A stretch of DNA of 6,848 nucleotides, from assembly GCA_030614005.1 (NCBI GenBank), contig JAUWKS010000107.1:1-6848 (forward strand). The letters run 5' to 3'. Made by a program: the position numbers and the translations under genes. The notes under the pieces are model-generated. The model was not told the DNA's origin. It did no database searches and worked only from the letters and a program-made list of their open reading frames with translations. The DNA is from Candidatus Heimdallarchaeota archaeon. GTDB taxonomy: Archaea > Asgardarchaeota > Heimdallarchaeia > JABLTI01. Position 1 is the first letter of the stretch, and each line of letters opens with the position of its first letter. Of the stretch, positions 2,319-6,848 are shown piece by piece.

Positions 2319-2393
2319 CTAACTTTTTGCATTAAATAGCAGAAGAATAACAACAAACCATACAATTACTAATACTGTTGCAATTAATTCAAC
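2319..2393 (-). other. Out-of-frame C-terminal segment (third TM helix) of the OSTC-like gene
   Basis: Skipping one A of the A6 run (T6 at + strand 2394-2399) continues the reading as ...TTQK-VELIATVLVIVWFVVILLLFNAKS-stop (TAG at 2321-2319). This strongly hydrophobic helix sits where OSTC/DC2 has its third TM. Confidence 0.85.
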
Positions 2394-2745
2394 TTTTTTG
2401 AGTTGTATTAACATCAAAAGCATATTTTGTTGCATGTTCAAAAAGGTATAAACTTGCTGCAGCAAACGAGAAAACGAATCCTGCTACAATCCCCTCAATT
2501 AGATACTGGGCATGTTGATTAGGGGCAATAAATACCGGTGAATTTCCGTCTGAGCCTATACTAATGAGGGTTTCTCTGTTTACAATATCATATGCTCCAC
2601 CAGCAAAGATATAGAAAACAATTGCATAAATCATTATATAGAGAACACTACGAGGGATTCTTGTTGGTATTCGAATTGAAATTTGATGTAAACTGAAATT
2701 TGGTCGTCTAATCCCGGGGAAAACCCACGGTAGCTTCTTTGCCAT
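2389..2745 (-). CDS. Oligosaccharyltransferase subunit OSTC/DC2-like (OST3/OST6 family, no thioredoxin domain); frameshifted near the C-terminus, full length would be 2745..2319 (141 aa)
   Basis: FYIFAGGAYDIV...PVFIAPNQHAQYLIEGIVAGFVF aligns by eye with human OSTC as I recall it (YFLITGGIIYDVI...[24 protein letters not shown]). N-terminal RPNFSL resembles CPNLKL. Two TMs are in frame and the third is out of frame. Confidence 0.82.
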   Translation of the reverse strand: MAKKLPWVFPGIRRPNFSLHQISIRIPTRIPRSVLYIMIYAIVFYIFAGGAYDIVNRETLISIGSDGNSPVFIAPNQHAQYLIEGIVAGFVFSFAAASLYLFEHATKYAFDVNTTQKS

Positions 2746-2887: not shown

Positions 2888-3661
2888 TCATCTTTTTATT
2901 CTTACTTTCTTTTCAAGGGGATATACAACAAAGCGACCAGGTGATCTCTCAACGTATTTCATTAAATATTTTTCAACCACAGAAGATGAAACTCCTAATT
3001 CGAGAGCTACCTCATTGAACTCTTTTTCTAATGCATCCTCATCTATTTCCTCGAGATACTCAAAAAATGAAGTCTCAAAGGATTCAGAATCTACAAAAAA
3101 CTGTTGTTGTTTTATCACACCAGAAACTGTTCCTTCATCTATCATTTTTTGAACAAAAGACAGGATTATAGAAGATTCTAACCCAAGTTTTGAGCTCATC
3201 TGTTTGAGATCGTGTTCTTCGCTTTTTGTTAAACTAGCAATAAAATGATGTTGAAGATATTTGTAAGTATAGAAGGCATTTTCACCAATCATACCTTTTT
3301 CGATGTGTTGTAAAAGGTTACCCAAAATGTTATCTTTCAATTTCCATCTTTTTTTTAGTTCAAGTAATTCAATTGTTCCAATGTTCTTTATTTTTTCCTT
3401 CAAATCTCCTAAATTATCTTCATCAATAGACAGAAACAACATTCTTTCACTAAGCAATATACCATGCAATTTTTTGGATGACTGAAGTTTATTGACGACT
3501 TTATATCTTTGCTGTAATGATAATTTAGAAGAGATTTTCTTTAGATTAACAAAATTCTTATTTATTAGCTCCTCCTGAAGGATAATAATAAAAAATTTTT
3601 CTTTGGAGATAAATAACTCTTTAATTTTGGCTAAGAGAGATGTCATGATACTCGAGAACAT
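2888..3661 (-). CDS. Tandem winged-helix protein (about 4 PCI/UFL1-like WH repeats)
   Basis: Four repeats of the pattern hxhxxhSxxLGhxxxxhxxxhxxhxxxGxhxG-beta hairpin (aa ~24-79, 84-133, 135-191, 196-256), clearest in DLKQMSSKLGLESSIILSFVQKMIDEGTVSGVI. The start may be Met6 (3646). The ORF is certainly coding; the family call is tentative. Confidence 0.65.
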   Translation of the reverse strand: MFSSIMTSLLAKIKELFISKEKFFIIILQEELINKNFVNLKKISSKLSLQQRYKVVNKLQSSKKLHGILLSERMLFLSIDEDNLGDLKEKIKNIGTIELLELKKRWKLKDNILGNLLQHIEKGMIGENAFYTYKYLQHHFIASLTKSEEHDLKQMSSKLGLESSIILSFVQKMIDEGTVSGVIKQQQFFVDSESFETSFFEYLEEIDEDALEKEFNEVALELGVSSSVVEKYLMKYVERSPGRFVVYPLEKKVRIKR

Positions 3662-3777
3662 CTATTTCTATTTCTTTATAAAATATTGCGTTTAATTCGA
3701 TTAACTAGAAAATAAGCCAAATTTGATTTTAGAAAGAAATTGTGGAGTTTATTTAGCTTGTTCACGTAAAAATATAG
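3662..3777. promoter_or_regulatory. Divergent promoter region
   Basis: 116-nt gap between divergent ORFs. TATA-like TTTTATAA on the minus strand (3683-3676) and TTTATTTA on the plus strand (3748-3755, about 23-30 nt before ATG 3778). Confidence 0.4.
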
Positions 3778-4704
3778 ATGAATATGTCAATTACTGAAAG
3801 AATTTCTTCAGGCATTGAAGGATTAGATATACTGTTACAAGGTGGAATGATTAAAAATACAATTAATTCCATTGTTGGGAGCAGCGGTACAGGCAAAACA
3901 ACTGTCGCTCTAGCCTATATTTACCAAGGCTTACTCGAAGGAGATCATACACTTTACTTGTCTTTTGAAGAGACGCCTTCTAAACTTATAGCCGGAGCAG
4001 AATCTTTAGGAATAAGAATTAAAGAAGTGTCACAGAATTTTACAGAACTCATACACCTTGTGGAAAGTGAGAAAATTGTTGAATTTATGACTAACATCCT
4101 TCCTGCTTTAGCTCAAAAACTTAAGCATAAAAACGTTAGACACACAAGAATCATTTTAGATCCACTTACACCAATTCTATGGGAATTCCCATCAGAAAAG
4201 GAACAAAGAAAGGTTTTAACAAAAATCTATCAGCACCTAAGTTCGTTAGGTACTGTTTTACAAACAGTTGAAGAACCTAATGCATTTGGACAAACAGATA
4301 TTGGAGCTATAGAAACAAGAGTTCCAATTTATCTATCAGACACAGTTGTCCACATTCAAAATCTTGGGTTAGGAGGTAAATATAACAGAACATGTAAAAT
4401 TGTTAAGTCTAGAAGAACAGCCCATCATGAAGGCATCTTCCCAATGCACTTTGCTCAGGGTTCAGGTATTGCTATTGATACAAGTTCAATTCAGGTAGAG
4501 TATAACGATCCATTAGTTTATGATACTAGATATAATGAATTAATGAAGAAAGTTAAACAAATGTCAAAAGATAAGGATCCAAAAAAGAGAATCATCGCCC
4601 AGATAGCGAAAAATCTGCTCAATGATAGACAAGAAAAGGGAGACAAAATTGAACTTGTAGATGCATTAACCAGTCCTCAAATACTTCAAGAGGTTAAAAA
4701 ATGA
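3778..4704 (+). CDS. Single-domain KaiC/RAD55-like ATPase with C-terminal helical extension
   Basis: RISSGIEGLDILLQGG N-terminal motif, Walker A GSSGTGKT, LYLSFEE (tandem Glu), Walker B RIILDPLT, YLSDTVVH, and IVKSRRTAH (KaiC-type K-x-R finger). Confidence 0.9.
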   Translation: MNMSITERISSGIEGLDILLQGGMIKNTINSIVGSSGTGKTTVALAYIYQGLLEGDHTLYLSFEETPSKLIAGAESLGIRIKEVSQNFTELIHLVESEKIVEFMTNILPALAQKLKHKNVRHTRIILDPLTPILWEFPSEKEQRKVLTKIYQHLSSLGTVLQTVEEPNAFGQTDIGAIETRVPIYLSDTVVHIQNLGLGGKYNRTCKIVKSRRTAHHEGIFPMHFAQGSGIAIDTSSIQVEYNDPLVYDTRYNELMKKVKQMSKDKDPKKRIIAQIAKNLLNDRQEKGDKIELVDALTSPQILQEVKK

Positions 4705-5060
4705 GCGATGGTTTCGGAATATCCTCAGAATTATCTGATTTGATACACTTAGATGATGTTGAAGCGGCTATACTCTTTCGAATAGATGGGAACGTTATCA
4801 ATTCAGCGTTTAAAGAACAGCATTCCAATGATATTCTCAGAACAATTCAATGGTGCAAAGCTAACGTGGAAAAAGTGTCACTTGAGATGAAAACCAACAA
4901 CTTGGCTAAAGTAACCTATGAGTTGAACAATTTCTGCGTTCTGTTTTCAGTGGTGAATAATGTTACAATTCTAACAACATTAGCAACTAAAACAGCTAAT
5001 CTAAGCCTTCTATCTATAGAAACTAAAAGAAAATCAATGTTGATTTCAACGAGTTTGTGA
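4701..5060 (+). CDS. Roadblock/LC7 (MglB/LAMTOR-like) domain protein
   Basis: 119 aa with Roadblock topology: helix, VEAAILFRIDGNVINS hairpin, long helix, three strands, ANLSLLSIETKR terminal helix (cf. xNLGLhxxEhRR). ATGA overlap with the upstream stop, and GAGGT SD. Confidence 0.85.
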   Translation: MSDGFGISSELSDLIHLDDVEAAILFRIDGNVINSAFKEQHSNDILRTIQWCKANVEKVSLEMKTNNLAKVTYELNNFCVLFSVVNNVTILTTLATKTANLSLLSIETKRKSMLISTSL

Positions 5061-5069
5061 GGAGTTTGC

Positions 5070-6410
5070 ATGAAAATAGCTACAGGAACTGCAAGCCATA
5101 GATCTATACATCAAGTAACTAAAAACATAGTGAAAGATGTAATTGGTGATATGAACGGGACTTCTGATTTCCTATTAGTAGGTTTTACACCAAACTACAG
5201 AAGTAAACAAACCTATAAAGAAGCACTCACGAAATTAAGTGAAGAAAGTGGAACATCAAACATAGTTGGGGGCACATTTCCAGGAGTTGCTACTTCAAAT
5301 GGATATCCAACAACACAAGGGTGCGCAGTTATGGCAATTAAATCCAATGATATTCAATTTCAAAACCCTTTCTCTTACTCTAATGTTAGAACGAATCCAA
5401 AGAAGGGTGCTAAAGTCATTCTGGATAGTTATAAGAAGATCAAACAAAAGAACAGAATGGGACTTTTTCTAGCCGCTGGTCCCTTTTTTGAACCAGACGC
5501 ATATGAACAAATGAAAATTTTGGATACTTTCTTTGCACAAAAATTCAAAGGAATGTTCAATGCAATTGGGAAAATCATAAACAAAAACATGGGTAAAAAT
5601 GGATTTGGTACAGCAAATTACGCAGATGAAATTCTGTCTATTCTTGCAAAAAAAAATGTCGAAAGTATAATTGGAGGAGCTACCATTGACTTAGACATGA
5701 GAACAAATTTTCAGTTTGAAGGAACAAATGTACTAAAAAATGCAATGGTTGGAACGTTTTTTTCATCGGATAAGTTGCAATTTAAGATTGATTGGACTTT
5801 TGACAAATCACAAAAATTGAACAATTTCGATATTTCAGAATTTCTTACAAGTGGGTATGTACAGAAAATTAATAAAGAACCTGCTCGCCAAGCATTTCTT
5901 GATCTTATTGGAATATCGGAGGAACTGTATAATGAATCTTTTGCACGATATGCAAATGCTTCGCTGTTATACTTAGCAGCACTCAATTCAGAAGATGAAG
6001 AACATATACCCTATGTTTCAATATGTCAATCAATTTTGAATGGAATTGTCACTACAATACCAGAAAGAATGTTGAAAAGGAAGAATATTAACGCAGATTT
6101 TTTCACTCAATCTGGAACAGGTATTCAAAAATCAGCGTTTGAGTGTGCTATGAAAGCATCTCAGAATATAGAAAAACCACTTTTTGGTATGTTTGTAAAT
6201 TGTAGTAATAGACTGCTAATTGCAGGAGACAAGATTGAAAAAGAAAATATTATGATTAGAGAAGCGATTGGAAATGACGTACCATTCATAACATTATATT
6301 CTGGTGGAGAATTTTCTGTGATAAAGAACAAACCAGTATTTTCAGCTGTATCTCTACATGGAATGGTTGCTGGTGAAAATACAGATACCACAAAAAATGT
6401 GGTGTTTTAA
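5070..6410 (+). CDS. Stand-alone FIST_N/FIST_C sensory domain protein
   Basis: FIST_N-like DFLLVGFTPNY...IVGGTFPG...GCAVMAI and IIGGAT. FIST_C GMFVNCSNR...ENIMIREAIGNDVPFITLYSGGEF matches the hhFSCxGR...E...h.GFYSxGEh pattern. SD GAGGAG at 5059-5064. No fused output domain. Confidence 0.88.
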   Translation: MKIATGTASHRSIHQVTKNIVKDVIGDMNGTSDFLLVGFTPNYRSKQTYKEALTKLSEESGTSNIVGGTFPGVATSNGYPTTQGCAVMAIKSNDIQFQNPFSYSNVRTNPKKGAKVILDSYKKIKQKNRMGLFLAAGPFFEPDAYEQMKILDTFFAQKFKGMFNAIGKIINKNMGKNGFGTANYADEILSILAKKNVESIIGGATIDLDMRTNFQFEGTNVLKNAMVGTFFSSDKLQFKIDWTFDKSQKLNNFDISEFLTSGYVQKINKEPARQAFLDLIGISEELYNESFARYANASLLYLAALNSEDEEHIPYVSICQSILNGIVTTIPERMLKRKNINADFFTQSGTGIQKSAFECAMKASQNIEKPLFGMFVNCSNRLLIAGDKIEKENIMIREAIGNDVPFITLYSGGEFSVIKNKPVFSAVSLHGMVAGENTDTTKNVVF

Positions 6411-6434
6411 ATGTTTTTTAGGATATGATATATA

Positions 6435-6848
6435 ATGATAGCTAGACAACCGCATAACACTAACCAAGGGAACATATTAAAAGTTGCTGTGCTTGGATTA
6501 GGATCTGTTGGTAAAACAACAATATCCAAAGGTTACACAGGAGAAATGACTGATCCTAATGAAATTTCTATGACTAAAGGAGTCGATATTACTATAAAGA
6601 GAATAGCACAACTTGATGAAGCGGTAACTCTTCAGATATGGGATTTTGCTGGTCAAAGGCAGTTCAGGTTCATGATAGATGTATTTCTACGAGGTGTCAA
6701 AGGTGTGATGTATGTTTACGATGTAACTGATATTGAAACCCTACTTGATCTTAGTGAATTTGTTGAACTTACCAGAAATTATCTTAAAAACCATTATTAT
6801 CCTAAAGTTCCTGAAATTTTAGTTGGAAATAAATTAGATCTGGATAAT
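6435..6848 (+). CDS. Rab-like small GTPase (Ras superfamily), 3' partial
   Basis: Translated by hand from ATG 6435, open to the window end (138 codons): MIARQPHNTNQGNILKVAVLGLGSVGKTT...SMTKGVDI...TLQIWDFAGQRQFRFMIDVFLRGVKGVMYVYDVT...EILVGNKLDLDN. Motifs G1-G4 are all present. Confidence 0.95.
   Translation, partial: MIARQPHNTNQGNILKVAVLGLGSVGKTTISKGYTGEMTDPNEISMTKGVDITIKRIAQLDEAVTLQIWDFAGQRQFRFMIDVFLRGVKGVMYVYDVTDIETLLDLSEFVELTRNYLKNHYYPKVPEILVGNKLDLDN

Follow-up and report, generated by a model that had tools for sequence, protein, structure and literature searches.

A Candidate Signaling Cassette Joining a Rab-like GTPase to a KaiC–Roadblock–FIST Core in Heimdallarchaeia

Introduction

Do four adjacent genes of an Asgard archaeon, coding for a KaiC-like ATPase, a Roadblock and a FIST protein, and a Rab-like small GTPase, make up a signaling unit, or do they only share a neighborhood? 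The genes lie at positions 3778 to 6848 of contig C96 (JAUWKS010000107.1), from a bin of Candidatus Heimdallarchaeota archaeon. The complete 6848-bp contig is the stretch of DNA that was analyzed, and it is called the window below. The original prediction, made from the letters of the window, held that the FIST protein senses a ligand and signals through the ATPase and the Roadblock protein to the GTPase, in the manner of nutrient-to-GTPase signaling.

Asgard archaea encode small GTPases and proteins of the Roadblock or longin kind by the dozen, and the genes for these rarely sit in operons (PMC10933270; Liu et al. preprint); in particular, the GTPase genes do not, as a rule, share an operon with Roadblock genes (Tran et al. 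2024, PMC10933270). It is therefore hard to assign a regulator to a GTPase in these organisms. The cassette described here departs from this pattern and is conserved. For one Rab-like GTPase it offers three or four specific candidate partners, all of them small, soluble, and suited to expression and assay. We describe it as a small GTPase and Roadblock signaling operon built on an older KaiC–Roadblock–FIST core. As such, it shows a possible assembly route, in which a GTPase was attached to an older archaeal module, and it gives a parallel to the bacterial conservon in hosts that are close to the ancestor of eukaryotes.

Gene Linkage

The window holds four co-oriented open reading frames (ORFs) on the + strand. 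The first (3778–4704) encodes a single-domain KaiC-like ATPase of the RecA superfamily (PF06745; 308 aa, with a C-terminal tail of ~70 aa), although it is probably not the ATG at 3778 but the next one, at 3784, that is the conserved start. It is followed by a Roadblock/LC7-superfamily protein of the AF0774 type (4701–5060; 119 aa), a stand-alone FIST_N + FIST_C protein with no further domain (5070–6410; 446 aa), and a Rab-like small GTPase of the Ras superfamily (6435–6848; Ras PF00071). The last ORF is open at its 3′ side, where the contig ends, and covers the first 138 of ~198 residues. All four identities had been named correctly in the original prediction, and the junctions that it listed were found on direct reading. 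The KaiC stop and the Roadblock start overlap in an ATGA at 4701–4704, by which the two genes are predicted to be translationally coupled. A 9-nt gap (5061–5069) separates the Roadblock and FIST genes, with a GAGGAG at 5059–5064 that overlaps the stop codon, and 24 nt (6411–6434) lie between the FIST and GTPase genes. As had also been claimed, no kinase or output domain is present. The cluster comprises four genes here, but its relatives have five, with an extra co-oriented gene after the GTPase.

We inspected 30 FIST loci with 1.5-kb flanks from the Heimdallarchaeaceae and from a second Heimdallarchaeia family, referred to here as f3. The order KaiC–Roadblock–FIST–GTPase was present in 21 Heimdallarchaeaceae loci, 20 of which also held the fifth gene (cl5), and one more locus ended at a contig edge after FIST. 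In f3, seven of the eight loci showed the order GTPase–KaiC–Roadblock–FIST, while the eighth had the Roadblock and FIST genes only. The f3 cassette is followed by an MFS-type transporter gene, and cl5 is absent from this family. The FIST profile had matches in 25 of 28 Heimdallarchaeaceae genomes and in 21 of 21 f3 genomes, and none in the 10 genomes taken from the bin's assigned family. Linkage was thus kept in two families and in two gene orders. Since all 30 inspected loci keep it, in two different orders, the linkage is far beyond chance and is more than inherited synteny.

The adjacency could in principle be inherited gene order with no functional meaning. Within the Heimdallarchaeaceae, the order of the four genes was kept in eight loci from four genera, with FIST identities down to 44%. 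The region from NadE to the ribosomal protein genes (at least nine genes) is syntenic throughout this family, however, and conservation inside it alone is weak evidence because the entire block behaves in the same way. The second family already contradicts an explanation by inherited order, which we consider highly improbable: f3 keeps the four genes together in another order, its cassette proteins share only 20–38% identity with those of the Heimdallarchaeaceae, and the flanks are wholly different (RIO kinase, KH protein, Rrp4-like protein, and MFS in f3; NadE, RadB-like, and ribosomal genes in the Heimdallarchaeaceae). Both orders recur in two further metagenomic lineages, one order in each, and the start and stop overlaps are conserved. 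Judged from these comparisons, the genes are predicted to form a conserved, functionally linked cassette in Heimdallarchaeia.

The Component Proteins

The KaiC ORF matched PF06745 with E = 6.3e-34 (117.8 bits, above the cut-off of 26.6). The G-x-G-K-T residues of Walker A, E64, D128, and R212 were invariant in 20 homologues, and the ATPase is likely active because Walker A, E64, and D128 belong to this set. A circadian KaiC was considered and ruled out: the 308 aa hold one domain instead of two in tandem, and NF006799 gave 109 bits against a cut-off of 408. The NCBIfam model KaiC_arch_3 also scored below its cut-off on the window protein.

The 119-aa protein had no match in the local Pfam even at E 10. 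A family profile built from 16 homologues matched the Robl_LC7 chain 7f8m_A in the PDB (E = 8e-9), as well as 9jue_D (3.7e-5) and 7yh1_D, over nearly the full length. The precomputed family of the protein is PF27410 (AF0774), its homologues carry the JGI label Roadblock/LC7/MglB, and its orthologues matched PF03259 weakly. Because of the profile match to solved chains, the PF27410 assignment, and the JGI names, we place the protein in the Roadblock/LC7 superfamily by sequence comparison. In some distant Roadblock relatives (P0159, P0259, and P0254), the fusion partner is a V4R domain or a receiver domain of response regulators, which shows Roadblock domains as adaptors of sensor domains.

For the third protein, the FIST_N model scored 30.2 bits, above its cut-off of 23.2, and FIST_C 23.6 bits, below its cut-off of 28.5. 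The AF2 model (pLDDT 91.6) was compared with solved structures using Foldseek. The best matches were FBXO22 chains (E = 3.5e-9, probability 1.0, TM 0.44–0.60), followed by Toblerone-fold hydrolases; the matched region is presumably the FIST domain of FBXO22. A search of the PDB by sequence with the FIST profile gave no real match. The Pfam models and the fold match together identify a FIST domain protein. Its role as a ligand sensor turned out to be an assumption of the original prediction, because what FBXO22, the closest structural relative, binds in its solved structure is a protein, its substrate BACH1.

The FIST protein could instead be a protein-binding or catalytic subunit, with the input coming from elsewhere, such as an MFS transporter or the phosphorylation state of KaiC. 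Besides the match to the FBXO22–BACH1 complex and to the Toblerone-fold hydrolases, the polar residues C378, R381, D387, and E414, which are invariant or nearly so in 42 sequences, are in line with this role. The gene order gives a further hint. Conservons comprise an ATPase-type sensor, a Roadblock protein, a third protein resembling guanine nucleotide exchange factors (GEFs), and a GTPase, with the Roadblock protein thought to be the GTPase-activating protein (GAP) and the third protein the GEF (PMC13343842, PMC13621833, PMC11343762). The FIST gene holds the same third position as the GEF-like CvnC/MfpC (PMC13343842, PMC11343762) and might thus encode an exchange-factor-like component. No similarity to DUF742/CvnC was found in the Pfam scan, however, and in two lineages FIST is succeeded by an MFS gene, as would suit the sensing of a solute. 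Bacterial FIST domains, moreover, reportedly sit as a rule at the input position of signaling proteins (Borziak and Zhulin 2007; NosP work). On balance, we regard a subunit role of the FIST protein as possible, if doubtful.

The GTPase fragment matched Ras PF00071 with E = 5.4e-23, and the orthologue in locus L023 with E = 1.7e-29. It carries the motifs G1 (GLGSVGKT), G3 (WDFAGQ), and G4 (NKLD), together with a YVYDVT-type motif. The best 60 solved matches were all Rab, Ypt, or Sec4 proteins, including Thor-Rab; at the top were Rab18, Ypt1, and the Thor-Rab of Thorarchaeota. By its closest solved relatives and its switch motifs, the protein is classed as Rab-like. The orthologues show no variation in G1, G3 (with the Gln), or the K-x-D core of G4, and for this reason the GTPase is likely active. 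The fragment in the window is 96% identical to a full-length 198-aa orthologue in L076, and the full-length orthologues are single-domain proteins of 195–203 aa. The tails of 15 of these contain no Cys, so a C-terminal Cys prenylation motif is missing from them.

The fifth co-oriented gene, cl5 (~105 aa), always follows the GTPase in the Heimdallarchaeaceae (for example, L076:9985-10302 and L023:10588-10905), and its place here would be beyond the contig end. The residues C14, C17, H45, and H49 (CxxC ... MHAxDH) are invariant and may form a zinc site. The cl5 protein has no Pfam family, and its relatives in the Atlas were only Asgard hypothetical clusters. Its AF2 model (pLDDT 75) gave no Foldseek match in the PDB at E ≤ 0.001, and the best Z obtained with VIA-align was 3.5.

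Assembly of the Cassette

A Roadblock profile search over 1.84 billion representative proteins yielded 152 related clusters, and the contexts of ten were inspected. Where the AF0774-type Roadblock protein stood alone, a KaiC-like gene lay directly upstream in six of six informative metagenomic contexts. The pair extends beyond Asgard archaea. On a euryarchaeal contig, KaiC and Roadblock genes, which share the same 4-nt overlap, are followed by a 452-aa AF0772_C protein. This protein matched the FIST profile with an hhalign probability of 88% (E = 3e-6) and Pfam FIST_N with E = 4e-4, as a divergent FIST protein. In the Asgard family f22, the order is KaiC–Roadblock–FIST–MFS, with no adjacent GTPase. 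KaiC–Roadblock, with or without FIST, appears from these contexts to be the older cassette, which a Rab-like GTPase joined in Heimdallarchaeia; since KaiC and Roadblock genes are directly paired beyond the GTPase-bearing families, the GTPase would have been added to an existing KaiC–Roadblock(–FIST) cassette. This Roadblock type always adjoins KaiC, whether a GTPase is present or not, so the KaiC ATPase may be its primary partner.

Two other contexts were recorded. In f22, the KaiC–Roadblock–FIST–MFS genes have on their upstream side, in divergent orientation, a longin-like gene (L064:5353-5838, − strand; Fuz_longin_1, E = 1.4e-4). In family f14 (L067–L069 and L075), FIST is found with a Roadblock protein of ~135 aa, a Roadblock-containing protein of ~315 aa, a gelsolin-like protein, LuxE, and LuxC, and neither KaiC nor a GTPase occurs in this neighborhood.

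The upstream regions of the KaiC and GTPase genes share a promoter-like motif. The first copy, TGTGGAGTTTATTT (3741–3754, + strand), consists of a block at the position of the transcription factor B recognition element (BRE) and a TATA-like box, and it lies ~30 nt 5′ of the conserved KaiC start. The second, TGTGGTGTTTTAAA (6398–6411, + strand), falls within the last FIST codons, 24–37 nt 5′ of the GTPase ATG. The common motif, TGTGGWGTTTWWWT, thus has two copies in the window against 0.10 expected, ~24–43 nt upstream of the two starts, and is rare genome-wide (1–5 sites per genome). The KaiC copy was conserved in six of seven aligned Heimdallarchaeaceae loci and also in L079. The GTPase copy was conserved in seven loci, including L026 and L027. 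In these two, an earlier FIST stop leaves it in non-coding DNA, so the motif is conserved as DNA. Placed in this way, the motif would suit an archaeal BRE/TATA promoter whose leader is short or absent. The GTPase and cl5 would then probably have their own promoter, which shares an element with that of KaiC, and such sharing fits a joined cassette of two co-regulated units. The GTPase looks like an added unit and not like part of one indivisible operon, because it has its own conserved promoter-like element and stands at the opposite end of the cassette in f3.

Some further transcription signals were considered. The other genomic sites of TGTGGWGTTTWWWT had no consistent downstream genes, and we claim no regulon. 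A terminator-like hairpin at 6383–6407 was rejected as a terminator, as its left arm is not conserved in relatives. A sigma-70 promoter scan, a model that is not relevant to archaea, returned fewer sites than shuffled sequence. Among the sequencing runs containing this DNA, no RNA run was listed; the DNA runs were sediment, marine, and cold-seep metagenomes.

Signaling Model and Its Alternatives

The explanation that we find best is a composite signaling cassette, in which a Rab-like GTPase was joined to a KaiC–Roadblock(–FIST) core; we hold it to be somewhat probable. The single-domain KaiC-like ATPase and the coupled AF0774-type Roadblock protein would form the old core, usually with FIST as the third member. 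The Rab-like GTPase would have joined this core in two Heimdallarchaeia families, together with a small Cys/His protein in one case or an MFS transporter in the other. In the mechanism proposed, FIST would serve as the input by binding a small molecule or a protein, and the KaiC-like ATPase would act as an ATP-driven switch or hub. A Roadblock dimer would be the adaptor that couples the state of KaiC to the nucleotide state or the location of the GTPase, and the GTPase would be the output switch. These roles are the most likely ones by analogy, because Roadblock proteins act in this way elsewhere (MglB is the GAP of MglA; PMC2910265) and because of the composition of the conservons.

Two findings speak for a connection between the core and the GTPase: one rare motif is common to the promoters of KaiC and the GTPase, and an AF0774-type Roadblock domain is naturally fused to a Ras-like domain. 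The fusion protein (337 aa; E = 6e-32 to the Roadblock profile) was found on two contigs (locus L084:6001-7014, P0124), with no KaiC or FIST alongside. It supports, at the level of sequence, an association of Roadblock with the GTPase fold. When complex formation was predicted for two Roadblock copies and the full-length GTPase orthologue, the score was 0.00, which weighs neither way.

Several observations weigh against the composite cassette. The Ras-like domain of the fusion lacks the P-loop and DxxGQ motifs. In other archaea and in the Asgard family f22, the AF0774-type Roadblock protein accompanies KaiC but no GTPase, and it may therefore serve KaiC only. The GTPase has a promoter-like element of its own, and its position changes between the families. 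The block synteny of the Heimdallarchaeaceae described above must also be counted here.

Alternatively, the locus could consist of two neighboring units with no signal passing between them: a KaiC–Roadblock–FIST ATPase module, in which the Roadblock protein would regulate or adapt the KaiC ATPase, and an independent GTPase–cl5 unit with its own promoter. In favor of this reading are the KaiC–Roadblock pairs without a GTPase, the TATA-like motif conserved in front of the GTPase even where it is non-coding, and the place of the GTPase, 3′ for one family but 5′ for the other, with cl5 missing from f3. Roadblock proteins were, besides, first proposed as regulators of NTPases generally (Koonin and Aravind 2000, as cited in PMC3149612). 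Independence of the two units is harder to reconcile with a GTPase gene that is directly adjacent in both families despite rearrangement and a differing genomic context, with the same rare motif in both promoters, and with the natural fusion of this Roadblock type to a Ras-like domain. We therefore judge separate units to be rather unlikely, and as the main competitor of the composite cassette.

A more far-reaching version of the composite cassette would be an Asgard solute-to-GTPase pathway, in which a transporter-linked FIST sensor and KaiC set the state of the Rab-like GTPase through a Roadblock platform. We consider this version improbable. If true, it would be a working prokaryotic counterpart of eukaryotic nutrient signaling via Roadblock-scaffolded GTPases, and this counterpart would have arisen within the Asgard lineage closest to eukaryotes.

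Relation to Known Systems

The closest analogue is the actinobacterial conservon (CvnA-D; mfp operon), of which the cassette is not a member. Both have four genes with the same order of roles: an ATP-using sensor-type protein, a Roadblock protein, a third protein, and a small GTPase of Ras-like type. Where the conservon has the histidine-kinase-like CvnA and DUF742, the cassette has a RecA-fold KaiC as its ATPase and FIST as its third protein, and its host is an Asgard archaeon instead of an actinobacterium. Furthermore, the GTPase is Rab-like with a DxxGQ motif, and its match to ATP_bind_1, the family that we take to hold the CvnD type, was weak (E = 0.0048 vs 5e-23 for Ras). HATPase_c and DUF742 were absent from the Pfam scans of all four cassette proteins at E 0.01.

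The MglA/MglB system also places a small Ras-like GTPase gene beside a Roadblock gene, the product of which acts on the GTPase (PMC2910265). The GTPase of the cassette differs in its canonical WDFAGQ and in being closest to Rabs, and the Roadblock protein in its AF0774 type and in its link with a KaiC ATPase. Archaeal single-domain KaiC-like ATPases have been proposed as signaling hubs (Makarova, Galperin, and Koonin 2017, as cited in PMC5847659), and in such hubs, including ArlH/FlaH, as in the cassette, genes for small partner proteins accompany that of a one-domain ATPase of the KaiC family. The literature searched, to which Makarova et al. 2017 did not belong, makes no mention of a Rab-like GTPase as a partner.

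Within Asgard archaea, an operon of a LAMTOR1-like Roadblock protein, a Rab-like GTPase, and a DENN protein has been described (Liu et al., bioRxiv 10.1101/2020.10.19.343400). It likewise joins a Roadblock-superfamily protein to a Rab-like GTPase, but the paper names neither KaiC nor FIST, and no DENN-domain gene was matched among the cassette neighbors scanned. The original prediction had compared the cassette with Rag/Ragulator, where Roadblock proteins scaffold GTPases in nutrient signaling, and the MFS gene that joins the cassette in two lineages recalls this. The analogy failed on the GTPase, which has no C-terminal Roadblock domain and resembles Ras far more than Gtr1_RagA (for the window fragment, E = 5.4e-23 vs 2.8e-6; for the L023 orthologue, 1.7e-29 vs 2e-5). 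The conservon is closer, and there is no sign of homology of the cassette pathway to Rag/Ragulator.

The belief that no characterized system has this composition agreed with the literature searched, in which no published description was found. The names AF0774 and AF0772 retrieved only unrelated accession numbers. Part of the core may already be described, since Pfam recently made the families AF0774 and AF0772_C and the KaiC-hub paper of Makarova et al. (2017) exists. As a whole, the earlier interpretation found partial support: the gene identities, the conserved functional linkage, and the lack of a published description stood, the likeness to Rag/Ragulator did not, and the signal route from FIST to the GTPase stays a proposal.

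Contig Origin and Neighboring Genes

The contig probably came into the bin from a Heimdallarchaeaceae organism by mis-binning, or else by lateral acquisition. The NadE that it encodes is 54–61% identical to those of Heimdallarchaeaceae genomes and 40–46% to those of the bin's own genus, and the cassette was not found in 9–10 genomes of that genus. The bin has a second NadE and RadB-like pair, of the own-genus type, at C8:12448-13901, with 45% and 26% identity to the pair on C96. Close relatives of C96 (91–96% protein identity) sit on 85-kb Heimdallarchaeaceae contigs. In GC content and tetranucleotide distance, C96 is a typical contig of the bin, so composition does not separate the two.

A gene for a UFL1-like winged-helix protein (2888–3661, − strand) lies divergent from the cassette. 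It adjoins KaiC in eight of eight analyzed Heimdallarchaeaceae loci, usually in the divergent orientation, and is co-oriented upstream in L026 (L026:5671-6441). No such gene was present beside the cassette in f3. The UFL1-like gene is regarded here only as a conserved neighbor. Several eukaryote-like genes of the endoplasmic reticulum type cluster around the cassette, the UFL1-like gene and STT3 among them; in several loci (L025 and L026), STT3 is no more than a few kb away. An OST3/OSTC-like ORF in the window (2389–2745, − strand) codes for 118 aa, compared with 116 aa in L078 and 141–142 aa in most relatives. In the bin's own genome, tblastn located two tandem small-GTPase genes beside two tandem OST3/OSTC-like genes (C46:30036-32578).

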